A stretch of 64,000 bases of DNA, from the IMG/VR virus record IMGVR_UViG_3300023313_000004, positions 1 to 64,000 of that record. One strand, given 5' to 3'. Of the stretch, positions 1-13,225 are shown piece after piece. The first letter of the stretch is position 1. The number at the start of each line of letters is the position of its first letter. The position numbers and the translations under genes are program-made. The notes under the pieces were generated by a model that did not search any database, was not told where the DNA came from, and was given only the letters and a program-made list of their open reading frames with translations. The DNA comes from a virus.

Positions 1-62
1 ACCTTTATACCATGCATAATTAACATCGTAGGAAAGAGAAATTTCTTTATTCCTTGTAGCAT
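1..62 (-). CDS. 5' end of a cassette-borne hypothetical protein (runs off the window edge)
   Basis: AGGAGA RBS then ATG at 62, reading MLQGIKKFLFPTMLIMHGIK..., open to position 1; lies just inside attC 89-147. Confidence 0.55.
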   Translation of the reverse strand, partial: MLQGIKKFLFPTMLIMHGIK

Positions 63-88
63 ACGTCTCTCCTATATTTTATGCTTCA

Positions 89-147
89 GTATAACAATTT
101 CATCCAATGGACTACGCTTCGCTTGCCTCTCATGCAAGCCGTTAGGC
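89..147 (+). mobile_element. attC: attC site (59 bp), integron cassette recombination site
   Basis: GTATAAC-AATTT-CATCCAAT...-GTTAGGC; R''/R' boxes, imperfect palindrome, same layout as the neighbouring sites. Confidence 0.8.
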
Positions 148-149
148 TT

Positions 150-350
150 CTAAAAAGCCCTTAATAGCTTATGGTATTTTTGAACATCCTCTTTCAATTT
201 CCATTGGGAATCCCTAACATCATGGAAGGCGTAGTATTCCATGTCTTCTATACAGTTTGCAAAGCCATCTTGGATGTCTTGATATTGCCTCTTAGCTAAA
301 CAACCGTCTGGCAGTCCTTCTACAATGTCTTTTAATGCCCTTGTTTTCAT
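150..350 (-). CDS. cassette-borne hypothetical protein
   Basis: 66-aa ORF with AAGGAG RBS, filling the space between attC 89-147 and attC 373-432. Confidence 0.7.
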   Translation of the reverse strand: MKTRALKDIVEGLPDGCLAKRQYQDIQDGFANCIEDMEYYAFHDVRDSQWKLKEDVQKYHKLLRAF

Positions 351-372
351 GTAAATTCTCCTTTACTTTCAA

Positions 373-432
373 GCCTAACAATTAAATCAAGCAGACCTTC
401 GTTCCTCGGCTGCTTATTCTGTGCCGTTAGGT
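373..432 (+). mobile_element. attC: attC site (60 bp)
   Basis: GCCTAAC AATTA AATCAAGC ...GCTTATT CTGTGCC GTTAGGT: 8-nt L'' with the extra C pairs with 7-nt L'; canonical top-strand architecture. Confidence 0.9.
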
Positions 433-774
433 GTTTAATTCTATCGTGTAAAATATATCCGCTATTGCAGGGGCATTCAGTTGCTCTTGATTGTTAGTGC
501 AGAAAATAAACATCTGAGTATTATCCGTAATAATCCGAGTAACTGCCTTTAAATTCTCTAAGGGGATTTCCCCCTCTACTAGCACTACACTTGCCGATGT
601 ATTTATCAGCGTTAGCTCAAATCTGTTATCTTCTAAAATCTGCTCCATGCTGGCATGAAGGCATTTCCCTTCGGCTTCCGCTAGTTGTTGCGCTAGCAGG
701 GTCTTGCCGCATCCTTGTTGCCCTATGATAAGTAAGGCTTTGCCCTGTTGTTTAATCATTTGTAGTAAAGTCAT
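427..774 (-). CDS. cassette-borne small P-loop NTPase-like protein
   Basis: Walker A GQQGCGKT, hydrophobic strand VVLVE as a Walker B candidate; AAGGAG RBS; stop codon lies in the attC R' box. Confidence 0.65.
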   Translation of the reverse strand: MTLLQMIKQQGKALLIIGQQGCGKTLLAQQLAEAEGKCLHASMEQILEDNRFELTLINTSASVVLVEGEIPLENLKAVTRIITDNTQMFIFCTNNQEQLNAPAIADIFYTIELNT

Positions 775-804
775 TTCATTCTCCTTAAATCCGTCTAGCT
801 ACAC

Positions 805-863
805 ACCTAACAATTTCATCAATCAGACTTCGCTACGCTCGCTGATTATTCGTGCCGTTATAA
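805..863 (+). mobile_element. attC: attC site (59 bp)
   Basis: ACCTAAC AATTT CATCAATC ...GATTATT CGTGCC GTTATAA. Confidence 0.9.
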
Positions 864-866
864 ACA

Positions 867-1046
867 TTACTGATTATGCCAAATCACAATGTCTGCTCTG
901 CACATAAATACACACCATGCTTTTCTTAATCTCCACAGGATGCCAGTCCTGCCTATGGGTCTAGCTAATACCCAGCCGCCCTTAGTTTCAGATAAACAAT
1001 CCCAATTTTTGATTTCCTCTGCTGTAAATTCGCTTACACCTTTCAT
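867..1046 (-). CDS. cassette-borne hypothetical phage protein
   Basis: GGAG RBS before ATG at 1046 (MKGVSEF...WVLARPIG...RLRKAWCVF); fills cassette 857-1073. Confidence 0.7.
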   Translation of the reverse strand: MKGVSEFTAEEIKNWDCLSETKGGWVLARPIGRTGILWRLRKAWCVFMCRADIVIWHNQ

Positions 1047-1066
1047 TTTATCTCCGTTAGCCATGC

Positions 1067-1121
1067 TTATAACAATCGCATCAAGAGGACTCTTCGAGCC
1101 TCTTACGCAGTGCCGTTAGCT
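1067..1121 (+). mobile_element. attC: attC site (55 bp)
   Basis: TTATAAC AATCG CATCAAGA GGACTCTTCGAGCC TCTTACG CAGTGCC GTTAGCT. Confidence 0.88.
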
Positions 1122-1214
1122 TTTTAATAATCTTTCACTGCAAGCTTGTACTACAGGTATAGCAACAGTGTCCCCAATCAAGTCATATAATTTAGGTTTT
1201 TCAATATTTATCAT
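1116..1214 (-). pseudogene. 32-aa remnant resembling the C-terminus (motif X) of a C5 DNA methyltransferase
   Basis: MINIEKPKLYDLIGDTVAIPVVQACSERLLKS*, similar to the Y..IGN.V.IPV motif X; ends in the attC R' box. Confidence 0.45.
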
Positions 1215-1219
1215 GTATA

Positions 1220-1519
1220 TTACTCCTTGGGGCAAAGCATATCATTAAGTTGAACTGCCTCTTGCGCTGCAATACCTATTTGTTTTCGCATACACACATG
1301 AATAGCTGAAACAACCCTGCGCTTTTCTTTCATGCTCAAGACCGAGCGGTCATGCCCTGTTAATTTTATGTACGATGTGCCACTAGCTGTCCAAATAGAT
1401 ATGCTTGGATTAGCTTTAAGCACAAAGCAATACTCATTTTGAACCCATAGCTTAGGATTGTCTTCTATAGCTTTAGCTAACTGCTCTATATCATCCCCAA
1501 TCTTATTCATAAACCACAT
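1220..1519 (-). CDS. hypothetical protein (decayed cassette)
   Basis: ORF track 1220..1555; AAGGAG RBS favours the ATG at 1519; half attC at its 5' end. Confidence 0.65.
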   Translation of the reverse strand: MWFMNKIGDDIEQLAKAIEDNPKLWVQNEYCFVLKANPSISIWTASGTSYIKLTGHDRSVLSMKEKRRVVSAIHVCMRKQIGIAAQEAVQLNDMLCPKE

Positions 1520-1537
1520 AGCCCATCTCCTTATTTT

Positions 1538-1559
1538 GCCTAACAATTTCATCAATCAG
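1538..1559 (+). mobile_element. truncated attC (R''-L'' half only)
   Basis: GCCTAACAATTTCATCAATCAG, nearly identical to the left half of attC 805-863; right half missing. Confidence 0.7.
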
Positions 1560-1578
1560 TAATCGTGGGGGGGTTTTT

Positions 1579-2583
1579 TCATTTAGGTAACTGGAGACGT
1601 ATCTCTTCCGCCAGTAGCTCCGCTAGCCTTGGGGGTACTGCATTCCCCACCATTTTATACCCAGCCAATACATTAGTGTATTTAAACTCAAAATCGTCAG
1701 GAAAAGTTTGTATCCTCGCACATTCCCGTACAGATAACCTTCTGTAAAGATGCTCCGCGCCCTTTTGAAACACATGGGCATCCTTTCCTACCCTTGGCAT
1801 AGGTGGTGCCTGTGGGTGTAAAGGTACTTGCCTCCCCCCTGCTTGTATAGTGAAGGATGGTTCTGCCCAAGACCTAACCCTATTTCTTGACATGAAGATA
1901 GGAGACCACCCTGACACCAGATACTCATGGTTTAGGGTTGAGGGCTGTGCCCTTATAGAGGGGGTGCTTGAAGGAGCTGGGCAGGCACTCCCTTCTAGGT
2001 CAGATATAGCATCTTGCAGGGTTAAGGATCTTTCTTTGTGGGTAGGGGCAGGAAAAACAAAAGTCGTCCCTAAATCCTCGCGCACCCCCACGAAAAAGAC
2101 TCTTTTTCTTGATTGGGGCACTCCATAGTCTTTTGCATCTAAGAGCTTAAAGGATAACCTGTACCCACACCCTCGAAGAAGCACTTTGATACATTCTAGG
2201 GCCTCGCTATTCCTATTGCTTAACATCCCCGATACATTCTCAGCTAAGAAAAACTTGGGTTGCTTCTCCTTAATCACTTTGATGAAATCGAAGAATAACT
2301 GACCTCTTTTATCGTCCAGCCCTCGTAAAGCCCCTGCCTCACTCCAGCTTTGGCAAGGTGGTCCTCCTATAACACCATCACAAGAGGGTATCTCCTCTGG
2401 GCATATAGACGTGATGCTTTTTGTATTGAGGGTTGTGCCCTTATGATTATGCCTAAAGGTATCTGCTATAGTCTTATCATTTTCATTCGCCCAGATAATA
2501 TCAAACCCAGCATTTCTAAACCCTAGGTCAAGCCCCCCTGCCCCAGAGAACAAGGACACCACTCTTAATAACTCTTTTTCCAT
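1579..2583 (-). CDS. DNA cytosine-C5 methyltransferase, M.HaeIII family (probably GGCC)
   Basis: FSGAGG, GGPPCQSWSEAG, ENV, QSRKR, IFMSRNRVRSW.EP.FTIQA.GRQ..LHPQAP target-recognition region, RRLSVRECARIQTFPD, GNAVPP; co-linear with M.HaeIII. Confidence 0.95.
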   Translation of the reverse strand: MEKELLRVVSLFSGAGGLDLGFRNAGFDIIWANENDKTIADTFRHNHKGTTLNTKSITSICPEEIPSCDGVIGGPPCQSWSEAGALRGLDDKRGQLFFDFIKVIKEKQPKFFLAENVSGMLSNRNSEALECIKVLLRGCGYRLSFKLLDAKDYGVPQSRKRVFFVGVREDLGTTFVFPAPTHKERSLTLQDAISDLEGSACPAPSSTPSIRAQPSTLNHEYLVSGWSPIFMSRNRVRSWAEPSFTIQAGGRQVPLHPQAPPMPRVGKDAHVFQKGAEHLYRRLSVRECARIQTFPDDFEFKYTNVLAGYKMVGNAVPPRLAELLAEEIRLQLPK

Positions 2584-2775
2584 AGTGCCTCCAAAAGGTA
2601 CGATACTACTACTGCTACAACTACTCTACGGGTCGTGCCTGTTGAGTCAGCACCTCGTTAGCCTTTTTTAGGCTCTCCAGCTCCAACTCCAGTTTCTCAA
2701 CCCTGTCTGCATAGGCATTTACTAAGCGGGATAGTTCACTACCTGTATCCCCTTGCCTCATCAAAGCACTTAGCT

Positions 2776-3555
2776 TCATCTCGAACCCCCCAATAGTACA
2801 TGCTGTAGGATACTGTGGCCTATAACCTCAGCTATTTGAGGCATGATACTATTCCCTATTTGTTTTAGCCTATCTCTGTCCAGTCGCCGCTGTACCCCAT
2901 CATTAACTCTGCGAACACTGGATTTAACCTGTGTGGGTCGCCCCCCTCCGCTGTCTCGCACTTCCACGTTTTCTGATGTAAATTTTTCAGCACCGTTCCA
3001 CGCAAATAGCATTTCTTTACATCTCTTGGTGTCCCACACCCCAAGGACTTCATATTGGGGTGGTTGCTGTCGCTCACGTTGGGGGTAGGCAATAATCCAA
3101 ATCCTTTCTCTTTTGTGTGGTGCACCAACGGAGGAAGCTGGGATAATGTGCCACTCCGCATCATACCCGATTTCCCATAAATCTTTGAGGACTCGTTCAA
3201 GTCCGTTATTTCGCAGGTTTGCCACATTCTCGATAATTGCATATTTAGGTTTAATCTCCTTTATCAGCCTATGGAACTCACTCCATAAACCACTCCTACT
3301 GCCTTCTTTTACTCCTGCGCCTTTACCTGCAACACTTATATCTTGGCAAGGGAAACCCCCACATATAACGTCAGCAGGTGCGCCCACCATCGTTGTTACG
3401 TCCCCATGGATGGGGGTGTGCTCCCAATGTTTTGATAAAACACGTTGGCATTGCTCGTCCACCTCGCAGAACTGTATAGTCTTAAACCCCCCTGTGCGTT
3501 CTAACCCCAGACTGAATCCGCCTATTCCGCTAAATAAATCAAGTACCGTAAGCAT
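2776..3555 (-). CDS. DNA cytosine-C5 methyltransferase, alpha-type chain (motifs I-VIII and X, no motif IX in this frame)
   Basis: LDLFSGIGG, GGFPCQD, ENV, APHKRERIW, RLKQIGNSIMPQ. Confidence 0.92.
   Translation of the reverse strand: MLTVLDLFSGIGGFSLGLERTGGFKTIQFCEVDEQCQRVLSKHWEHTPIHGDVTTMVGAPADVICGGFPCQDISVAGKGAGVKEGSRSGLWSEFHRLIKEIKPKYAIIENVANLRNNGLERVLKDLWEIGYDAEWHIIPASSVGAPHKRERIWIIAYPQRERQQPPQYEVLGVWDTKRCKEMLFAWNGAEKFTSENVEVRDSGGGRPTQVKSSVRRVNDGVQRRLDRDRLKQIGNSIMPQIAEVIGHSILQHVLLGGSR
2865..3242 (-). CDS. nested alternative-frame ORF, putative beta subunit of the C5 methyltransferase (motif IX)
   Basis: Same strand, shifted frame; LLPTPNVSD and RLNPVFAELMMGYSGDWT (motif IX-like); arrangement as in M.EcoHK31I; start codon uncertain. 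Confidence 0.6.
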   Translation of the reverse strand: MQLSRMWQTCEITDLNESSKIYGKSGMMRSGTLSQLPPLVHHTKEKGFGLLPTPNVSDSNHPNMKSLGCGTPRDVKKCYLRGTVLKNLHQKTWKCETAEGGDPHRLNPVFAELMMGYSGDWTEIG

Positions 3556-3588
3556 ATTATATCTCCTGTGTTGTTTCAGACTAATAAT
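3556..3588. repeat. 33-bp direct repeat copy 1 (RBS leader plus decayed attC R'')
   Basis: ATTATATCTCCTGTGTTGTTTCAGACTAATAAT, identical to 4375-4407. Confidence 0.9.
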
Positions 3589-3605
3589 TTCATTGATTCG
3601 TGGGG

Positions 3606-4376
3606 CTAGGCTTCTAGGAAGCAGCCGCAGCCTCCTATGTCGAACTTATCAATATTCAAAACCCCTGTTTCTACTCCCATCCTAAACTCTTTTAATGAGT
3701 AGTAAAAAAGCTTCTTATTTCTTGTAACTCTCAAAAAGGGGTGTCTCTTGCCTAGTGTTTCAAATAACCTCTCTTGCGCTATTTCAGACTCTTTATACTT
3801 CTCAGGGAAGTGTTTTAATACTTTAGCCCACTGCCCTTGACCTGCTTTGACACATGCCCCGTGGCAGTTGTTGTGGCTAAACCCTAATTGATATAGTAAT
3901 GGTATCGGTAATCCATCGTCCTCCACTATCTTCAACATATCTTTTTTGCTTAGATAAGGTTCTTCGCATAATGGGGCTTCTACCTTGTGTGTCACATGCT
4001 TCCTATGCGTCTCTAACCTGTGGCTCTCTGTCCAATCAATACCAAGATATATTGTAGGGCACTCTCCACCCTCGGCATCCAACCACTTAGCAAACACATC
4101 ACTTTTTAGCGTGGTTGAGCAGTGTGCCACCCTAGAGTTCCCTGCGTATTTTTTGTCCTCAAACACCTCCCATATACCTCGCCCATCACTAATCTTTATA
4201 AGGGGTACACCCAACACTTTCGCTGCTGAGTCTATGAAAGAATACAGGTCGGGGTGTTCTCCCTTAGTGTCTGTAAAGACTAAAACTGTATTCTCTGTGC
4301 CGTGGGCTTCGACTACGCGCTTCGCAGCAACGTAGCTGCCAATACCCCCAGAGAAACTAACTATATGTTTACTCAT
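3606..4376 (-). CDS. PAPS-reductase-like adenine nucleotide alpha hydrolase (PP-loop) family protein
   Basis: VSFSGGIGS PP-loop, FTDT..E, CS..LK, GF.HNNC.G.CVKAG, C-terminal GGCGCF. Confidence 0.8.
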   Translation of the reverse strand: MSKHIVSFSGGIGSYVAAKRVVEAHGTENTVLVFTDTKGEHPDLYSFIDSAAKVLGVPLIKISDGRGIWEVFEDKKYAGNSRVAHCSTTLKSDVFAKWLDAEGGECPTIYLGIDWTESHRLETHRKHVTHKVEAPLCEEPYLSKKDMLKIVEDDGLPIPLLYQLGFSHNNCHGACVKAGQGQWAKVLKHFPEKYKESEIAQERLFETLGKRHPFLRVTRNKKLFYYSLKEFRMGVETGVLNIDKFDIGGCGCFLEA

Positions 4377-4407
4377 TATATCTCCTGTGTTGTTTCAGAC
4401 TAATAAT
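4375..4407. repeat. 33-bp direct repeat copy 2
   Basis: identical to 3556-3588. Confidence 0.9.
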
Positions 4408-4533
4408 CGCTTGTCACGAGCGAAAGCAGGTATGTGTAGTTAAACGCTACGTCCTGCCTAGGGTTATGCGCTTGACTAGCATCCCTTCGCTAATTCACTC
4501 TACAAGCACTACATGGCTAATGCAGCATGTTAA

Positions 4534-4609
4534 GCCTAACAATCTTATCAAGCAGTATAAGTTACTGGTTACGTTATCCAGTGCAGCATTATCGTAGCTG
4601 CCGTTATTC
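4534..4609 (+). mobile_element. degenerate attC-like site
   Basis: GCCTAAC AATCT TATCAAGC ... TGCC GTTATTC; left boxes canonical, L' imperfect. Confidence 0.55.
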
Positions 4610-4945
4610 GACCGAGAACTCCCAATCCATTACACGCTACTGCCAGTTCAAATTGGTAGGCTGCCTTTCAATGCGTAGCACATCACTCGATTTTGTATTT
4701 CTACTGGCTCTTGAAACCTGCCTTTTTGATTATGCTATTAGACAAATAGCACACCCGTAACGGTGGGTGATACCAGTTGTCCGCTATTTATCACGGACTG
4801 ATTTAACCCCATCAGCCGATAAAGGCTACGGTCAAATCTTAGGGTTCGCCACCCATATCTCCCTGCTTGTGCACGTCTACACATATCACACGTCATTTCG
4901 TGTTCATCGTTTAAGCATCGTTGAGAGGCTTAGGGGAGTATTATT
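4610..4945. ncRNA. putative structured non-coding RNA in an ORF-less cassette
   Basis: No credible - strand ORF; tandem hairpins e.g. TGCTATT/AATAGCA, CACCC/GGGTG, GTCCG/CGGAC, CTGAT/ATCAG, ACACG/CGTGT. Confidence 0.35.
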
Positions 4946-4951
4946 TTTTAC

Positions 4952-5004
4952 TTATAACCTGCATAAAGAGGACTCATCGAACCTCTTACGCTGTGCCGTT
5001 ATAT
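4952..5004 (+). mobile_element. degenerate attC, homologous to attC 1067-1121
   Basis: TTATAAC CTG CATAAAGA GGACTCATCGAACC TCTTACG CTGTGCC GTTATAT; shortened spacer, extra C of L'' mutated. Confidence 0.75.
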
Positions 5005-5012
5005 TTCTAAAC

Positions 5013-5225
5013 TTACTGCCTTAACATACCCCTCTGCCTCACTGTCTTAGAAGGGTAAAACAGGCACGAACTACATACCCCTTTACCTGCTATAGCTATT
5101 CTGTGAAGTACCGCTGATTTACCGCGTCTCCACACATTAGGTAATCTAACTAATAGCCTACCTCTATAGCTCCATGATGCAGTGGTGGTAGTCATCCAAT
5201 GCCTCTCATGAGGTAATAATCTCAT
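5013..5225 (-). CDS. hypothetical protein (decayed cassette)
   Basis: 70 aa, AAGGAGG RBS; between attC 4952-5004 and a half site at about 5240. Confidence 0.5.
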   Translation of the reverse strand: MRLLPHERHWMTTTTASWSYRGRLLVRLPNVWRRGKSAVLHRIAIAGKGVCSSCLFYPSKTVRQRGMLRQ

Positions 5226-5234
5226 TCCACCCTC

Positions 5235-5271
5235 CTTCAGTACAACAATGTCCCCCCAACCAGACTTCGCT
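5235..5271 (+). mobile_element. decayed half attC
   Basis: CTTCAGTACAACAAT matches CTTCAGTATAACAAT at attC 89; CAGACTTCGCT matches attC 805. Confidence 0.5.
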
Positions 5272-5615
5272 TATAGGGGGTATTCAGCTCTCTTCTCAAA
5301 CCCTTCAGACACTAACAACTCAGATAGTGTTTTCACTCTATCTTGTAAGAGCACCGTAGCTATCCAACGACCATACTTCCCTGATTTCTCAGTTAGGATT
5401 GTAACTTCCTTGCCTTCTATCAAGTCTATAACCCTGTTCTTAGCCAGAATACCATGCTTACGTTCCGCCTCAGTCTTTGGTCGCCAAGTCTCTGGGGTGT
5501 CTATCCCCCTAAGCCTAAACCGTATTGCCGCAGTCATATGAAACCCTAGGTCTACCTTTGCATCAAACGTATCCCCATCTACCACTCTTGTAACCAATAC
5601 TCTATACCTATACAT
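5271..5615 (-). CDS. thermonuclease (staphylococcal nuclease-like)
   Basis: RVVDGDT, RLRGIDTPE, GKYGRWIA; start MYRY after GGAGG. Confidence 0.9.
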   Translation of the reverse strand: MYRYRVLVTRVVDGDTFDAKVDLGFHMTAAIRFRLRGIDTPETWRPKTEAERKHGILAKNRVIDLIEGKEVTILTEKSGKYGRWIATVLLQDRVKTLSELLVSEGFEKRAEYPL

Positions 5616-5834
5616 CCCTCTACCTCCTGTATGCAATAACAACTCTTAATATCTCTTCAGCGTATCTAACCGCCCCATCTCTTCCAACATCCCAACATTC
5701 TGCCTCTTATTCCTGTCCACCTTCATCTGGAGGGTGTACCACCTAGTAGTGGCTGCATCTATCTTATGGTCACTCTCTGGGCGGAGTGTATTCCCCTGAC
5801 CCAACTCTTTAGCTGTCATGCCCCAGAACCGTGC

Positions 5835-6038
5835 CTAGCGTAATACTCCTTCGACCTTGCCAAGGACAGTCTCCTGAGCTCTATCAGCAGTTTGTGCTTC
5901 TCTATCATTAACGCTGTCACCTTCATAACCCTTACCCTTGTTACTCAATTCTCTTAATTCCCTTTCCAGAAGGGTAATCTTACGCTCATATTGCGCTATC
6001 TTCCCTAGAAGTACAGCCCTTTCCTCTACTACCCTCAT
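5835..6038 (-). CDS. hypothetical coiled-coil protein
   Basis: GGAGG RBS, 67 aa. Confidence 0.5.
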   Translation of the reverse strand: MRVVEERAVLLGKIAQYERKITLLERELRELSNKGKGYEGDSVNDREAQTADRAQETVLGKVEGVLR

Positions 6039-6052
6039 AACCCCAAACCCTC

Positions 6053-6343
6053 CTAAAACTGCCTAATAATATATGTGCCCACCTCAGGCACTGGTATCAC
6101 CTGTGTCCACAGCTCCAAGTCCCCAAGAGACGCGATAGCATCATAATCCCTAATAAAAGCCTCTAACGTATCCTCTCTATACTCACAACAAATAGAGACA
6201 CCATCAAACTCCTGCCCCTTACCTTCTTCCTCTTCCGTCAGGTACTCAAACAATGCCCTTCGCCCCTCAACACTGAAAGACTCCTCTCTGTCCATATCCC
6301 TAAACCACTGCACAAACATGCTCTCTGTCAACTCTATATACAT
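6053..6343 (-). CDS. hypothetical phage protein
   Basis: acidic 96 aa with F...F....R...FS.EG..ALFEYL and ICCEY.E pattern; AAGGAGG RBS. Confidence 0.7.
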   Translation of the reverse strand: MYIELTESMFVQWFRDMDREESFSVEGRRALFEYLTEEEEGKGQEFDGVSICCEYREDTLEAFIRDYDAIASLGDLELWTQVIPVPEVGTYIIRQF

Positions 6344-6376
6344 ACCCTAACCTCCTTTTCTTATTGTCATATACCG

Positions 6377-6586
6377 TTATATTTCTAAGCTGTCTTGTTC
6401 TTCTTCACTTAATGCTAGGAACCTGTCTATCATCTTATAAAACTTCTGCCCGACCCTCTCTCTTGGCTCAAAGTTCTTTTTCACAGGGTGCGGTGGTGTC
6501 ATCCTGTTTCTTGAATACTCAAACATCCACCCTTCATACTCATAGAAGGTAGGCATAGATATATGTATTAGGTTAAATTCACTCAT
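6377..6586 (-). CDS. hypothetical protein
   Basis: ATGA overlap with upstream gene; ends in CCGTTATATTTCTAA, the same 15-mer as the R' end of attC 4952-5004. Confidence 0.6.
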   Translation of the reverse strand: MSEFNLIHISMPTFYEYEGWMFEYSRNRMTPPHPVKKNFEPRERVGQKFYKMIDRFLALSEEEQDSLEI

Positions 6587-6795
6587 TGCACCTCCTTAAT
6601 ATAAACCCATAACGGGGAGTATTTACTAGTGTAATTTTTACTTGTCTTGTAATAAAGCCTTAAATGCCTGCCACTGGTCTTACCCGATTTCATGTATTTA
6701 TCTGCTTGAATAAGAGCACTCTCAAAAGCTCTATCCACAAAGAAACGTACGCCACCTCCGTTCATATCCACTATTTTACATTTTTGTTCTGACAT
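6583..6795 (-). CDS. hypothetical protein
   Basis: AGGAGG RBS; L''-like remnant ATTTCATCAATCAG at 6808-6821. Confidence 0.6.
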   Translation of the reverse strand: MSEQKCKIVDMNGGGVRFFVDRAFESALIQADKYMKSGKTSGRHLRLYYKTSKNYTSKYSPLWVYIKEVQ

Positions 6796-6817
6796 ACACC
6801 CTCCTATATTTCATCAA

Positions 6818-7021
6818 TCAGGCCTGACTTACCTTGCCAGTACATGCATTCACATCGTGTAGCAGCTCCCCAGTCCCAAAAGGGCTGAATATCTGAGCCC
6901 CACACTTTGGACAACCTCGGCTGGTTCTACACTCCATCTTGAAATGTTCGCATTCAGTCACATACCCGTTGCGTGTATCAATAATATCAGTACCACATTT
7001 TCCGCAGGAAAAACTACTCAT
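6818..7021 (-). CDS. small Cys-rich (zinc-ribbon) hypothetical protein
   Basis: CGKCG and CPKCG motifs. Confidence 0.55.
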   Translation of the reverse strand: MSSFSCGKCGTDIIDTRNGYVTECEHFKMECRTSRGCPKCGAQIFSPFGTGELLHDVNACTGKVSQA

Positions 7022-7331
7022 CCTCGCCCCCCAAAACACCCAAGCAGTCCTTCAGCACATGCCCCAACAAACTCTCTGTATTGGCTAACACAGCGCAGAT
7101 ACGCACACCCTCTTGATGATGCCCCTGCCCACACATCTCCACCCACTGCAAATACTTCCTGACAATCAACAACTCTTGGTCTGCATCCTCAAAAGGCAAA
7201 AACAAAAACGCCTCCGTCTCACTGATGCACACCTCAGGTTCTAACTCCCCACTCAACCGCACAGTGAAGTCAGGGTACAACCACTTAGCCAAGATGACCT
7301 GCTCCTGCAATGTAGTCCCTTCTAAAACCAT
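7014..7331 (-). CDS. hypothetical protein, first gene after the promoter at 7385
   Basis: GGAGGG RBS before ATG 7331. Confidence 0.6.
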   Translation of the reverse strand: MVLEGTTLQEQVILAKWLYPDFTVRLSGELEPEVCISETEAFLFLPFEDADQELLIVRKYLQWVEMCGQGHHQEGVRICAVLANTESLLGHVLKDCLGVLGGEDE

Positions 7332-7356
7332 ATACCCTCCGTCACCACTAAGAATA

Positions 7357-7385
7357 ATACTACTCCTTAGTGATACACTTGTCAA
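7357..7385 (-). promoter_or_regulatory. sigma70-type promoter driving the accessory/cassette region
   Basis: TTGACA-N17-TAGTAT, AT-rich upstream. Confidence 0.75.
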
Positions 7386-7691
7386 CATAATAAATAAAAC
7401 CCCAAGAAAATCCCCCAGTATTTTTTTGTATTGCCAGCACAGCGCACCCAAACACTATCTGATTTCTGGTATTGCCCTGCCTATAACTACCCTATATTAA
7501 GATATGCCCTAGAAACTTTTTCACGGTGTTTTTGCAAAGTTCCTGAGTAAGAATGGCTAAATACTCCCATTGTTGGTTTTTGAAAAAAGAGTATTTAGAT
7601 GACTATTTCTACTTTTTGCCCTTAAGCACCCTTTTTTGCCCTTAAATAAAAATATACCAACACTCCCCCTGCTTGGTCATAACCGCCCAAC

Positions 7692-7714
7692 ACCCCCATG
7701 AACTTAAGTGCATA
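7692..7714. repeat. near-palindromic motif ACCCCCATGAACTTAAGTGCATA
   Basis: identical 23-mer at 59512-59534; 20-bp inverted copy at 10946-10965. Confidence 0.85.
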
Positions 7715-8430
7715 CCCCCTTACACAACACTTCCGCCCCTGCTGACTTAACCACCCTAACTGCCCAATATATATAGCCTTATATGAAAATATTACTAAAA
7801 ATACCCCATGCATTTACGGTACTATAACCAAAAACGAGAGCCAAAACGCCCCCCCAAATGGAAGCCTAGAGGGGGTGGGGGTTAGCGGCTCAAATTATTT
7901 TTCATCGGGGAAATCCAGAAAAACCCCGATAAAAACCCCATATGCCATTCCGAAATAGACGGCGGAGTTCCAACCTGTGATGCTATCTAGTGCCAGCAGT
8001 GGAATAAGAATAGCGAACCACATTATAATCAGGAAGCCTATAGTGCAGGTTACAGGGGCTTGGTTGTCGTTATGTGTTACACCTTACCCCCCTGCAAGCT
8101 TGGCTTGTAAGCATGAAGCATAAGCCCTTGATTATAATACATAAAACCCTTCGCGTGTGTTGTCATTATATCGCCTCCTATGGCTATGTTGTCTCTAATA
8201 TCCAGCGGCATAGCGTACAGGCAGCGGCTATAAAGCTGGACTTAGAATGTGTTATTGATTTATTCTTGCTATGTTATTGCTATGTTATTAACTGTCCTGC
8301 TGTGTTACTGAATGTTGTTTATTGTTTCTATTTCCGTGTTACATTTACTCTTATTATTCTATTGTTGTTTATCTATATTATTATACTAATCGCCCCCTAA
8401 TCCTTTTTCATATCATTTATATTGTGGGTT

Positions 8431-8458
8431 ATTCTAAGCCCTTCTTTACACTTGTCAA
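8431..8458 (-). promoter_or_regulatory. sigma70-type promoter
   Basis: TTGACA-N16-TAGAAT with the shared TTGACAAGTG -35 context. Confidence 0.6.
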
Positions 8459-8476
8459 CATTTATTATTTTGTGTA

Positions 8477-10189
8477 TCAATGCCTATGCATAACATAAGT
8501 ATAGTTACCGATAGCGGGTGCTATCCACTGCGTATAATACGCCCCTCGCAGGGGTAAGGGTCTTAAATTCCTTGTATGCGTATATTCTATTTCTTGTCTT
8601 AATAAAACGCGGCGCGTTCTCTCTGCATTGTTTATAGTAGTGATTGCTTCTAATTCTTTTTTATATTTTAAGTTCGCCGCGCTCAATGCTTGGACTTGAT
8701 AGAATGCTTTCGTTATGCAATCGTCACATATATTAGCGTTATCTGACTCTCGCAACTCGTCAATATCAACATACTGGCAACACTCCGAACACTCCCCTAT
8801 CCCCTCATTCTCTGCACAATCCTCATCACAATAATAGTGCCCGTTTTGTGCTTCTATGCTATCGCAAGTATGAATAGGGTCACAACATGATGAGCAGTGC
8901 CCTACCCCCTCGTCCTCAGCACATTCAGAACTACAATACGGCACCTCATCAGGGCTAACAACTTCTACACTATCTTGACTTATCATATCGTCACAATGCC
9001 CGCAGGGGTATATATCGTCTTGCGCCGCACAATAATGTGAGCAATAGTAAGAAGTATGGCTGCTTCCCGCGTGACTATGCGCGTCATCTATTGCTATAGT
9101 CTCTTCGCAGTTATCACAATGAACGTAATCATTAGAACAATTTTCACAAACAGGGTCGCCGCCTGCGTTGTAGCCTTGGGTGTCCTCGTCACACCTATCG
9201 CCACAATCTGCACATTCGCCCCCGAACCATTGCCCCGTTGTCACGCTCGCTACCTTTGCATCTATATTACATGCCGGGGTACTTAGTGTTATCCCCCCGT
9301 CCTCAGCACAATTCAGAGAATCCAACCAAGGGTATTGATTAGCCCCGTCCAGCGGCTCGGCTAAGTGATGAACTAGCGCTGGCAGCTCTTCACTATTATG
9401 ACAACCCGCACCCGTTTTATCGTAACAGTACCAGCCATGTTTTTCTGCTAAGTTTTTCGTTAGCTCCCGCGTGTCTGGAGTTGAGGGGTACGCCCTATCA
9501 ACTAAGTAAGATTTGTTGCCTTCCATATCTTCAACCGCCCACAAAAAAGCGCGGACTGCGGCCACATTCTCCCCTTTTGTGATAGCATATGGCAGGTCGC
9601 TCCAGATTAAAGTATATGCTCCCTCTGCTGCTGAGGGAGTGGGGTTTATTAAAGGTTTATCGTCTGTAATCGCTAACGTCTCGTTTAGCTCTGCCCACCT
9701 ATGATACGTATTATCTAAAGCATCATCTATGCTCTCTTTGTTCTCTAATGCAGGCCCTTCCATACAACTCCCGCTCCGATACCCGTAATGGCGCGGCAAG
9801 ATTTGACCTTGTAAACTTTGATATATTTTGGGGGTGGTGCTGAACCCCTCATTTTGGGCTAACGGGTGATGTTTTAAAAGAGCGACAATAAACTTATGCA
9901 GGTCTGACTCTGATAACTTTATACTATCAGCAAGCCACCTTTTTATTAGTTTATTAGCCTTCATTTTTTTTGTTCTAGTACATGACTCTTGTTTTTGTGA
10001 GTATGCTAAGTGTGTTCTTTCTGTACTACTGAATCTTGCGCTGTCTGGCATATTACAAAAAATATCGGGCATGCCTACGCTCCCGTCTTTGGGCAGTAGC
10101 ATGTTTATATGCTTTATAGCTTCATGTGCTAACGCCTCTCTAAATACTCTTATTGCTTTTTTTGTTGTATCATCTTGTGATAAACACAT
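8477..10189 (-). CDS. Cys-rich multi-zinc-ribbon phage protein
   Basis: SCM...RAFLW...DRAY...PWLDSL domain followed by many CxxC/CxxxC pairs. Confidence 0.75.
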   Translation of the reverse strand: MCLSQDDTTKKAIRVFREALAHEAIKHINMLLPKDGSVGMPDIFCNMPDSARFSSTERTHLAYSQKQESCTRTKKMKANKLIKRWLADSIKLSESDLHKFIVALLKHHPLAQNEGFSTTPKIYQSLQGQILPRHYGYRSGSCMEGPALENKESIDDALDNTYHRWAELNETLAITDDKPLINPTPSAAEGAYTLIWSDLPYAITKGENVAAVRAFLWAVEDMEGNKSYLVDRAYPSTPDTRELTKNLAEKHGWYCYDKTGAGCHNSEELPALVHHLAEPLDGANQYPWLDSLNCAEDGGITLSTPACNIDAKVASVTTGQWFGGECADCGDRCDEDTQGYNAGGDPVCENCSNDYVHCDNCEETIAIDDAHSHAGSSHTSYYCSHYCAAQDDIYPCGHCDDMISQDSVEVVSPDEVPYCSSECAEDEGVGHCSSCCDPIHTCDSIEAQNGHYYCDEDCAENEGIGECSECCQYVDIDELRESDNANICDDCITKAFYQVQALSAANLKYKKELEAITTINNAERTRRVLLRQEIEYTHTRNLRPLPLRGAYYTQWIAPAIGNYTYVMHRH

Positions 10190-10221
10190 ATTAAAACCTT
10201 CCTTGTTTTAGTTTTTAGTTT

Positions 10222-10482
10222 TTAGTTTTTGCTTTGTAAAAAGAAGGCCGCACCTTTTACTTTTATCGCTGTACTTACTGCAATATTTAAATAAGTGTCT
10301 AAGCATTCTCGTTGTGTAGTTGTTATGTTAGCCCCCGCAATGCGGCGCATAACCCTATTGAGTTGGTTCTTTGTCTTTGCCGCAAAAATAGCATTTTGAT
10401 AAAACACTAATAACGGGTGAGCGGTGTGGGGTTGACGTAATATCATAATGTTAAGCTGGCCGCTGCTACTGTTACAGCCCAT
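10222..10482 (-). CDS. hypothetical protein
   Basis: 86-aa ORF, start uncertain. Confidence 0.45.
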   Translation of the reverse strand: MGCNSSSGQLNIMILRQPHTAHPLLVFYQNAIFAAKTKNQLNRVMRRIAGANITTTQRECLDTYLNIAVSTAIKVKGAAFFLQSKN

Positions 10483-10571
10483 GACTCTGCTAAGCTTAGT
10501 CCTGCCCCCCCTGCCACTAATAATACGGGAACCACTAATAGTATAGTTTTTAATATGCTTTTCTTATTCAT
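10443..10571 (-). CDS. small membrane protein
   Basis: MNKKSILKT plus hydrophobic stretch; downstream of the promoter at 10634. Confidence 0.5.
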   Translation of the reverse strand: MNKKSILKTILLVVPVLLVAGGAGLSLAESWAVTVAAASLTL

Positions 10572-10606
10572 TATGAACCGCCTTTTTTCTCTTACTGTAT
10601 GACGAG

Positions 10607-10634
10607 AATATATCGGCTGAATTTCACTTGTCAA
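10607..10634 (-). promoter_or_regulatory. sigma70-type promoter
   Basis: TTGACA-N16-TATATT. Confidence 0.6.
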
Positions 10635-10803
10635 CAAAAAAGATTTTTCGCCCTGATACCCTTATTTTTCGCATGGAATTTGTCATATTTTTTGAAAAAA
10701 CAACGCACAATAATCCCACCTAGGCAAGGATAATCTCACTTTTTTTTGGCCAGTGGAATCTAACATTTTCTCAAAGTTTTGACCCATCTGACCTCCCATA
10801 ACT

Positions 10804-10825
10804 GAAACCCCCTTAAAGGGGTTTC
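10804..10825. terminator. GC hairpin downstream of terL
   Basis: GAAACCCC-loop-GGGGTTTC stem; weak U tract. Confidence 0.35.
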
Positions 10826-10945
10826 CCCTGAGCATTTTATTTTCGGATTTGAAAGTTTTTGGGTATCGTTTTTAGTAGGTCATAATCCCTATTATTTTTG
10901 CATAGAAAAGTCTATGGTATTTTGGTACTTTTACCTATGCTAGGC

Positions 10946-10965
10946 TATGCACTTAAGTTCATGGG
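10946..10965. repeat. inverted copy of the 7695-7714 motif
   Basis: TATGCACTTAAGTTCATGGG is the exact reverse complement of 7695-7714. Confidence 0.85.
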
Positions 10966-10972
10966 TATAGGG

Positions 10973-13225
10973 CTACCCTTCTATGGATTTAGCTGCGGAC
11001 AATGCTTGTACACTATCTGGTATGCTCTGAGGGGTTATCCCTGCCTCTAGCCATAGGTCTCCCCTCGTAATCAAGCCATATAAAACTCCTGCCATTGAGT
11101 CAGCCACATCTTTAGAGTTATGTACTACTGCCCCGTTAGCTAAGCAGAAGTTCTCGTTAGGGTATGCTCCTAGGTCATACACAGGGATAGGCACGGCGTG
11201 GCTCACCACCTCTACTTGAGTAATGGTAATAGTGTCTCCCCTCTCTGTTGGTAGGTGGGGGTTTACATCCCTAGAGATTATTGTGTCTCCCCCTACTAAA
11301 GAGTCCGTCCTTGCCCAGCCCCTAGAGACGAGGACTTTATGCTCCCCTGTAAGCTCCATGACTACGCCCTCGGAGGAGTAAACCCTGTATGTCTCAGTAG
11401 TTTCTCTAGTTACCCTCGGATGTAGTACCTCTTGTGGTACGAATACCTCTAGGTCTTCATTGTACCCCTGCACTACATACCTTTCTCCCCCTGTATGCCC
11501 TAGAGCCATGTCTGCTATAGTCCTAGTGACACCACTACTATCTTTAATAAGGGTTGAGCCTATTAAACTACCGTGAGGAGGGTGGTCTACCTTACCTTTC
11601 TTTGTGTCTAGTTCTAGTTGTACCAGCTCTGTACAAAGCCTCTCGTGGTAGGGCATCTCTATTCTACCATCATACAAGGCCTGCTTAACAACGTCATAGG
11701 GCGCGGTTGTTCTATCTATAGACTGTACCCCTGCCCTAAAATTCTTAGTCCTTAGGATTTGGATAGTGTCTGCTGACTGATATGTATCTAGTGACACCCA
11801 CCCGATAGGTATCCCTAGCTGGTCTCTTAATGCGTATATCAGCTCCCTTATCTTCCAGAACTGTATTTCTCCCCCTAGAGGTGGTGCTATCTCTAAGGTC
11901 ATATCTATTACAAATTTGGGGAGTATCTCAAACGTACCACCTCTATCTACTTTAACAAACCTCTCTATGTGCCCCATAGCAAAGCCTGCGCTATCCCCCG
12001 TGAGAGCTAAATCCATATGAATCCAGCGTTTAGCTGTGGGGTTTAGGAGGTTCAAGGTACTAAGTTCTGCTGAAGTACTAACAAAATCAACCTCTACATT
12101 CGATGCTATAGACTCTAAGGTGCAGGCATCAAATATCTTCGTGCTATCTAAGATGAAGGGGTGCAGAGCCATGGTGGCTTTGCCAGCAATATCTCTTAGG
12201 CTACTCATCATATCATTTTGGAAATCTTTTCTGAAGTCCTCTGGGATACGGTCATACAGCTCTTCCTCCCCCTCAGGGATAACAAAGTCTGGCTCTTCTA
12301 TTCTGGGTGCTCTAGTTAAGTCTCCTGTGAATATCGTAAACCACCCAGACACAAACTCTTGGGGTTTAATATCCCACAACCTTTTAGAGTATATAAATAT
12401 ACTGGGGTCATTTACTGCCTCTTTCTCTTTGCATTCAGTGAAGTCTCCGGGGTAATGCTTAGAGGAAACTAGGCATAGTACTCCCGGAAGGTTTCCTTTC
12501 TGCATAAACCTAGATTTCCTTCTCCTAGCTATAGAGTTATATATCTCTACTGCTTGGTCGAAGGTGTCTCCCGTTCTGCTCTGCTTGGATTTCTCTGTGA
12601 TGCTAAAGAAGTTAATCTCATCTATCACACCTCCAAATACATTCTGCCCTATCGTGGCGGTAGAGGAGGCTGATACGGGGCGCACATACACCCTATTAGG
12701 GAATTGTAGTTCTGACTCTATATCTTTATTGTAAGGGTAGTGGTTCTTAAAATAAGGGGAGTTATCTATGAGAGCCTTGAACCTCGCATAGTCTACCTGC
12801 TTGGCCACCTTCTCCGTTACCGATTGGAATATGAATACTATCTCTGAGGCAGGGTCTAACCCGTATTCTGCTTGGGGGTCTACTAAGCAGCTTAATAGGT
12901 ACAGTTGGTATCCTGTGGTGGCAAGGGCTGCTGTGGACTTACCTACCCCAATAGCCCCTGTAAAGACTCCTTCATCGTACTTGCCTGTATTAAGTTCTAT
13001 CATGTCAGTCATGACAGAGGGGTATAGTGCCCCTTCATAATTAAAAAGGTTAGGGTCTGTAATAAATGTTTCAAAAGATACAGGTATATCTCTGTACTTA
13101 CCTAAAGTATGAAGGGGTGCTGCATCCCCCTTCATGGCTGCCTGTAAGGCCTTATATATCTGAGCCCTAGCTTCTGGGTCAGGGAGTCTCGCTACCTCTG
13201 GGAATAGACCCTCAATGTTCTTCAT
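10973..13225 (-). CDS. terL: terminase large subunit, intein-containing
   Basis: Walker A GAIGVGKS, Walker B GVIDE, RNase H-type nuclease HMDLALTGD...D.YQS...DHPPHG/SKDVADS. Confidence 0.9.
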   Translation of the reverse strand: MKNIEGLFPEVARLPDPEARAQIYKALQAAMKGDAAPLHTLGKYRDIPVSFETFITDPNLFNYEGALYPSVMTDMIELNTGKYDEGVFTGAIGVGKSTAALATTGYQLYLLSCLVDPQAEYGLDPASEIVFIFQSVTEKVAKQVDYARFKALIDNSPYFKNHYPYNKDIESELQFPNRVYVRPVSASSTATIGQNVFGGVIDEINFFSITEKSKQSRTGDTFDQAVEIYNSIARRRKSRFMQKGNLPGVLCLVSSKHYPGDFTECKEKEAVNDPSIFIYSKRLWDIKPQEFVSGWFTIFTGDLTRAPRIEEPDFVIPEGEEELYDRIPEDFRKDFQNDMMSSLRDIAGKATMALHPFILDSTKIFDACTLESIASNVEVDFVSTSAELSTLNLLNPTAKRWIHMDLALTGDSAGFAMGHIERFVKVDRGGTFEILPKFVIDMTLEIAPPLGGEIQFWKIRELIYALRDQLGIPIGWVSLDTYQSADTIQILRTKNFRAGVQSIDRTTAPYDVVKQALYDGRIEMPYHERLCTELVQLELDTKKGKVDHPPHGSLIGSTLIKDSSGVTRTIADMALGHTGGERYVVQGYNEDLEVFVPQEVLHPRVTRETTETYRVYSSEGVVMELTGEHKVLVSRGWARTDSLVGGDTIISRDVNPHLPTERGDTITITQVEVVSHAVPIPVYDLGAYPNENFCLANGAVVHNSKDVADSMAGVLYGLITRGDLWLEAGITPQSIPDSVQALSAAKSIEG
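11117..11569 (-). mobile_element. mini-intein (151 aa, Ser1) in TerL
   Basis: SLIGST start, block B LTGEHKVL, block F VYDL, HN/S end; splits DHPPHG|SKD; no homing endonuclease. Confidence 0.88.

Follow-up and report, generated by a model that had tools for sequence, protein, structure and literature searches.

Clusters of attC sites lacking an integron integrase (CALINs) have already been described in phages. Qi, Rajabal, Ghaly, Tetu and Gillings (2023, Front Microbiol, PMC9892861) reported 17 of them, which makes outdated the premise of the original prediction for the present locus, namely that integrons are a feature of cellular DNA. Methyltransferases were part of the cargo of those phage CALINs, and IntI1 recombined the attCs of Pseudoalteromonas phage PH101 and Tetrasphaera phage TJE1, the bottom strands being more active (PMC9892861). 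In their text the PH101 layout is described as typical for bacterial arrays, with no mention of reversed orientation. In regard to cassettes that are found off their platform, Loot et al. (bioRxiv 10.1101/2022.09.11.507474) proposed that cassettes inserted outside integrons are domesticated through the deletion of the attC hairpin by replication slippage.

The stretch of DNA analysed here (the window, 64,000 nucleotides) corresponds to bases 1-64000 of the IMG/VR record IMGVR_UViG_3300023313_000004, which is 75,572 bases long. We propose, with a probability of roughly 0.7, that its first ~7 kb, together with ~360 bp across the join of the circular genome, form a CALIN that lies in the accessory region of a tailed phage of virulent type and whose cassettes are swapped by a host IntI acting in trans. 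The nearest described case is Pseudoalteromonas phage PH101 (H101, NC_029094), also a virulent-type phage without intI, whose attC cluster carries one small ORF per unit and methyltransferase genes among the cassettes, is matched by our covariance model (R1, see below) and has its genes antisense to the attC top strand. Unlike PH101, the present phage is uncultured, and it has a longer array, from which decayed sites trail off over ~7 kb. With class 1 and sedentary Vibrio integrons the locus shares the attC architecture, the G|TT signature, one promoterless gene per cassette and recognition by R1, but it has no intI and no recognisable attI (a site without a general model) or Pc, its genes lie on the attC bottom strand, and the attC precedes the gene in the mobile unit, whereas the bacterial cassettes that we sampled were sense in 21 cases and antisense in none. 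With the attC x attG insertions of Loot et al. (10.1101/2022.09.11.507474) it has in common cassettes off a platform and a bare GTT left boundary, and its hairpins are lost as those authors predict from replication slippage; their insertions concern the E. coli chromosome, with no phage target and no orientation bias.

The phage genome and its recombinase complement

The record comes from a microbial-mat metagenome, and one public run holds the sequence. Its first 127 bases recur at its end, which points to a circular assembly, and CheckV rates it as complete. Nearly all genes of this tailed phage are on the - strand, and among them are those for a tape measure protein, a tail protein, a helicase and a portal that is ~40% identical to the portals of Stenotrophomonas, Rhizobium and Vibrio siphophages. 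The gene thyX (ThyX) sits directly left of position 1, across the circular join; together with phage structural genes it borders the array on that side, phage replication genes border it on the other, and all of these genes share one strand. Independent contigs of the source microbial-mat run cover the whole of 1-7500. Given the circular closure, the flanking phage genes and these contigs, the left end of the window is phage DNA, neither a host integron nor a chimera; the array does lie inside a tailed-phage genome, as had been supposed. Elsewhere in this genome, a 750-aa ORF (10973-13225, -) has no PHROG match; towards its C-terminal part it shows a weak match to an intein splicing domain, which at E 2.8e-5 falls short of the Pfam cut-off.

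An IntI encoded beyond the window edge had also been envisaged, with intI and attI to be sought left of position 1. The complete 75.5-kb genome does not provide one: it has no match at E<=1 to PF00589 (tyrosine recombinase) or TIGR02249 (integron integrase), and no match, even at E<=1, to serine recombinase domains or Y1 HUH transposases. At the left boundary there is a bare GTTATATTT beside thyX and no recognisable attI, a site for which no general model exists. A CALIN is defined by at least two close attCs without intI, and here six R1 matches on one strand lie within 5 kb of an integrase-less genome. Since no recombinase is found in the complete genome, the element is an integrase-less attC cluster and not an integron. 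Promoters and terminators show no excess in 1-7500 and none occurs at the intact sites, which speaks against a reading of the sites as regulatory hairpins.

Attachment sites and cassette units

The attC architecture predicted for four sites is present at each of them, on the + strand as top strand: S1 (89-147), S2 (373-432), S3 (805-863) and S4 (1067-1121). S2 and S4 are identified by fold, alignment and R1, the bottom (-) strand of S2 forming R and L stems with a bulged T and an unpaired G, and S4 having the L stem CAAGAGG/CCTCTT. S3 is an R1 match with a 55-bp stretch that recurs in an unrelated phage (see below). S1 (fold, alignment and R1, 67.6 bits as a training member) has clear R boxes and weak L-box pairing, in agreement with the looser L boxes that had been noted for it. 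The four sites align with ten sites from other phage contigs, and the 14 sequences have invariant TAAC...GCCGTTA ends and a common layout, R''-spacer-L''(extra C)-loop-L'-spacer-R'. Within the R'' and R' cores (RYYYAAC and G|TTRRRY) TAAC and GTTA are invariant in all 14, S1-S4 included, and are found also in the two further sites S6 and S7 of this window.

Changes in the inner stem are compensatory (CAAGCAG/CTGCTT, CAATCAG/CTGATT, CAAGAGG/CCTCTT and CAAAAGCG/CGCTTT). When pairing and compensation were scored over the 14-site alignment against 500 shuffles, on a structure specified by us, 84.5% of L-box cells paired compared with 78.8% in the shuffles, none of which reached 84.5%. Two-sided compensatory changes numbered 12 cells against 5.6 expected, a value matched by one of the 500 shuffles, and they fall in three L-box pairs; S1 and S6 pair poorly. 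The - strands of S2-S4 fold into an L stem whose 3' arm has a bulged T and, six bases from it, an unpaired G. Such a bulged T and unpaired G are the bottom-strand signature of attC sites, and the six-base spacing is one that we take to be canonical, judging by attC aadA7. The folding energies of the sites are no better than those of shuffles, which is evidence neither way, short, bulged hairpins usually folding no better than shuffled sequence.

Only the 14 phage sites went into R1. When the complete 75.5-kb genome was searched with filters off, the model returned six matches, all on the + strand and all within the first 5 kb: S1-S4 and two sites on which it was not trained, the long attC-like S6 with a degenerate stem (4532-4611, +; 19.3 bits, E 0.016) and S7 (4950-5006, +; 27.5 bits, E 8e-5), a diverged copy of S4 followed by GTTATATTTCTAA. 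Five to seven attC sites are still intact. In published records the model picks up four attCs belonging to the class 1 integron that phage P1 MH445380 carries and four PH101 sites (NC_029094), together with a single site of phage TJE1 and, in Vibrio phage MK672802, VCR-like sites that lie downstream of intI. Since one model detects the class 1, Vibrio, TJE1 and PH101 attCs, and IntI1 recombines the TJE1 and PH101 sites, S1-S4 and their kin group with validated attCs and are putative recombination sites. An Rfam scan of 1-12000 returned no attC family and just two chance-level matches.

Each unit between S1 and S4 holds one small ORF, as predicted, and all three are on the - strand with a Shine-Dalgarno motif. 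They encode 66 aa (150-350; AAGGAG ahead of the ATG, no family match), 115 aa (427-774; small P-loop NTPase-like, Pfam AAA E 1.3e-4) and 65 aa (867-1064; phrog_21988, E 1.2e-7). The ribosome-binding sites of the cassette genes abut the R'' box, and the stop codon of the 115-aa ORF is a TAA within the R' box. For the 115-aa protein a single distant homologue (45%) was found among 5.8 billion proteins, on a contig whose 541 bp offer no usable context. Next to thyX, at GTTATATTT (genome 75214), begins the leftmost cassette (unit 0); it contains a 94-aa ORF on the - strand which starts within 1-63 and runs over the circular join into genome 75223-75507. Right of S4 follows a cassette ORF of up to 111 aa (1220-1555, -) with no family match.

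The ends of each unit are exactly complementary (GTTAGGCTT/AAGCCTAAC, GTTAGGTGT/ACACCTAAC and GTTATAA/TTATAAC), just as they had been quoted, and in this window the matches reach 6, 6 and 4 nt beyond the GTT. Over six phage arrays, a match of at least 4 nt beyond the GTT occurs in 25 of 28 pairs of adjacent sites, in 4 of 34 comparisons within a site and in 36 of 182 non-adjacent pairs. Such unit-end complementarity is the trace that a site-specific crossover at G|TT leaves, and that homologous exchange between repeats would not; each unit once existed as a circular cassette, with its bounds at the attC G|TT crossover.

Decay, fixation and sharing of cassettes

To the right of S4 the sites degrade, and remnants reach ~7 kb. 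The first is a truncated attC (1539-1559, +) of which the R'' + L'' half is left, identical to the left half of S3. A G7T6 run (1560-1578) directly follows this half-site, just past the stop codon of the first methyltransferase, and may mark the deletion that took the right half. At 3577-3615 (+), comparison with sites of another phage array (G001) reveals a collapsed attC that has kept its R''-like and R'-like ends and lost the central hairpin, which fits the slippage-driven domestication of Loot et al. Further remnants are a possible decayed attC at 4396-4469 (+; CAGACTAAT-AATCGC ... GGTTATGC), recognised by eye only and missed by R1, fragments at ~5240-5275 and 6370-6388 (CCGTTATATTTCTAA), also read by eye, and a left-half remnant at 6806-6821 (+; ATTTCATCAATCAG).

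Between these decayed sites the genes of 1579-4376, all on the - strand, are probably former cassettes: two C5 cytosine methyltransferases (1579-2583 and 2776-3555), a PAPS-reductase-like gene (3606-4376) and a 52-aa ORF. A run of small genes on the same strand (5013-6795, -), including an SNase-like nuclease (5271-5642), follows, and then a 73-aa Zn-ribbon-like gene (6818-7039, -). The older sites being truncated or without a hairpin, their genes, among them the two methyltransferases, the PAPS-reductase-like gene and the nuclease, are now fixed in the genome. The region also contains an exact 33-bp repeat (3556-3588 and 4375-4407), a 5' leader with ribosome-binding site and ATG that serves the second methyltransferase and the PAPS-reductase-like gene, each copy entering a decayed attC. 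Just upstream of S7 a sub-threshold Rfam match to abiF RNA (4908-4931, -; 26.5 bits against a gathering threshold of 37, E 0.34) is probably due to chance.

A pattern scan of IMG/VR, in which the present phage is G000, gave further arrays (G001-G005). G001 is a 38.9-kb record with terminal repeats that has 12-13 sites and encodes a terminase, a portal, head and RecE-like proteins; G002 is complete at 40.7 kb; G003 and G005 likewise carry arrays, and G004 a single site. No PF00589 (tyrosine recombinase) match was found in G001-G005 or in five more array-bearing viral fragments. Compared by blastn and tblastx, the present phage and G001 have only attC sites and one gene in common. The 55-bp attC stretch of S3 is 100% identical between the two genomes, and the gene is that at 6818-7039, with 82% nucleotide and, in the - frame only, 87% amino acid identity to its G001 copy. 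Intact attCs flank it on either side in G001, where it is a cassette; here only a remnant lies beside it, and it is the sole gene common to the two unrelated phages. Beside or inside the attC arrays of G001 (L035:3876-4757) and G002 (L037:7313-8476) there are genes for a RecE-like exonuclease and a RecT-like annealing protein.

Within the source run, other contigs carry sites 2-4 and diverge right past GTTATA (862) and GTTAG (1119), and in one contig an intact attC of the S4 type is joined to a gene start resembling that at 3536-3567; the source of these contigs may be other phages or a host array. A search of the run over 1-7500 showed no join across a removed cassette and no circle junction, and it covered assembled contigs, which drop rare variants and are therefore uninformative on excision. 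Among the matches listed for a loose attC pattern run over genome contigs there were almost only chance matches in coding DNA and no host integron. The exact S3 22-mer had no match in metagenome contigs, where a broader attC pattern gave 12 stretches, mostly on the same phage contigs and on short fragments. R1 returned just scattered single matches in five bacterial genomes, the attC pattern of the window was absent from 120 sampled Planctomycetota genomes, and blastn of S3 against phage and plasmid collections gave no match.

Gene orientation and the proposed moving enzyme

All cassette ORFs of this locus are on the - strand and the attC top strand is +, which is antisense to the canonical orientation; the canonical layout, with the gene on the attC top strand and the attC 3' of it, fails for every cassette. 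Every gene has the bottom strand as its coding strand, and a mobile unit, followed in the order of transcription, consists of attC, then ribosome-binding site, then gene, opposite to the order in bacterial cassettes. The strand call rests on the behaviour of R1 in known arrays: in the class 1 integron its matches lie on the aadA/cmlA strand, just 3' of the genes, and in TJE1 and in the Vibrio integron they again share the strand of the genes, so that the strand modelled by R1 (the + strand of the window) is the canonical top strand. For PH101, the top strand according to the primers of Table S3 of Qi et al. is the + strand of the record, which is the strand called by R1. The antisense geometry recurs in G001, G002, G003, G005 and PH101. 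The original reading as integron-type cassettes is thus right as to cassettes carried in a phage, but it missed the antisense layout of their genes.

The orientation of viral and bacterial sites was then surveyed with one strand-specific pattern and one ORF-strand pipeline, over one attC subfamily, with crude ORF calls and possible near-duplicate contigs, and with PH101 as one viral locus; a crude L-stem filter, which also rejected most true bacterial attCs, was left out. On IMG/VR contigs, all pattern matches together gave 73 antisense, 25 sense and 22 mixed cases, and the R1-confirmed sites 34 antisense, 2 sense and 10 mixed. In 401 sampled gammaproteobacterial genomes there were no antisense, 21 sense and 1 mixed, the R1 matches all falling on the pattern strand. 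This systematic reversal and the separate pool that it would imply are the part of which we found no description in the literature searched; phage CALINs as such were already known (Qi et al. 2023, PMC9892861).

We infer that an IntI of the infected host is used in trans, and that cassettes are probably excised, captured and swapped by this integrase on folded attC bottom strands. The cassette genes would serve accessory or anti-restriction functions and be expressed by read-through from phage promoters. If transcription and replication are co-directional, the reversed layout would put the recombinogenic strand on the lagging-strand template, which would allow the exchange of cassettes within a single infection; in V. 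cholerae, excision rises from undetectable to ~3% when the chromosomal integron is inverted and its bottom strands thereby lie on the lagging template. The GC skew of the + strand is negative throughout the phage genome, which is compatible with replication running with transcription and may reflect transcription instead. (The skew is most negative at 4001-8000, the region of decayed cassettes, at -0.315, the values elsewhere being -0.04 to -0.19.) The reversed layout would also keep phage cassettes as a pool apart from bacterial ones. We therefore advance, tentatively and at somewhat less than even odds, the broader idea that phage attC arrays are not bacterial strays and form a separate, mirror-oriented pool, with the bottom strand on the coding and probably lagging-template strand, from which host integrases swap accessory and anti-defence genes within one infection cycle.

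Evidence against a host integrase lies in the distribution of the sites, since the attC subtype of the window was found mostly on the same phage contigs in the metagenome scan, was absent from the 120 Planctomycetota genomes and had no blastn match in the phage and plasmid collections. This phage-biased distribution leaves room for a phage-associated enzyme, and no IntI is linked to this attC type, the role of a host IntI being what we infer. One could accordingly imagine a mirror-image, attC-like system that is associated with phages and driven by a non-IntI recombinase supplied by other phages, prophages or hosts, or else plain homologous recombination between repeated hairpins, as in the cassettes of T4-type phages. 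Those T4-type promoter-early stem-loop (PeSL) cassettes are promoter-plus-terminator elements thought to act via homologous recombination, and they resemble the present units in being small phage accessory genes parted by repeated hairpins and shuffled between genomes, but the locus described here has no excess of promoters or terminators and its unit ends bear the mark of site-specific crossover. The reversal of genes relative to bacterial cassettes in nearly all viral matches, the occurrence of the exact attC subtype mainly on phage contigs and the RecE/RecT-type genes beside the G001 and G002 arrays would all suit such a system. We nevertheless consider it unlikely, given that one model detects both these sites and validated attCs, with which they have strand-specific bulges in common, that IntI1 recombines the PH101 sites, which have the same geometry, better on the bottom than on the top strand, that unit-end complementarity indicates a fixed G|TT crossover, and that a tyrosine recombinase gene is missing from all 11 array-bearing viral records, of which three have terminal repeats.

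The gradient of sites from intact to collapsed could also be that of a frozen relic, in which cassettes entered once, by illegitimate recombination or attC x attG, and now decay without exchange; the left boundary at GTTATATTT beside thyX, with no recognisable attI, would agree with this, as would the ability of IntI to insert cassettes at GWT sites anywhere in a genome (Loot et al.). A relic is hard to reconcile, however, with a 100% identical attC and a common cassette in an unrelated phage, or with the same attCs adjoining several alternative sequences in the same sample, and a one-off bacterial donor is unlikely because the sampled bacterial cassettes of the same pattern are never antisense (0 cases), so that we regard this history as quite improbable. 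As for an assembly chimera or host contamination, by which a fragment of a bacterial integron would have been fused to a phage contig, nothing favours it except the general risk of metagenome assemblies, and it is scarcely credible for a contig that closes on itself with a 127-bp overlap, whose array is bracketed on one strand by thyX and structural genes and by replication genes, and which an independent assembly of the run spans over all of 1-7500; similar arrays, moreover, occur within other complete phage genomes. The capture and exchange of cassettes by a host IntI in trans is the reading that we retain.

Phages with attC cassettes can trade genes via bacterial integron integrases and move cassettes between bacteria. 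To this the present case adds a cassette in common with an unrelated phage and a complete phage genome with live and decayed sites, in which it can be seen how cassettes become fixed phage genes. The orientation contrast, if upheld by a full survey, would mean that phage cassettes are a distinct pool under different constraints, and that they would be misassigned by standard annotation, in which the gene is sought upstream of the attC. A separate pool, if true, would further imply that cassettes can be assembled in either orientation, a point relevant to the question of cassette origin. One IMG/VR contig (L287:1490-3613) departs from nearly all others in that its three R1 matches mostly run sense to the ORFs around them; it may be a fragment of a bacterial integron that was misfiled among the viruses, or else carry a sense array like that of TJE1.
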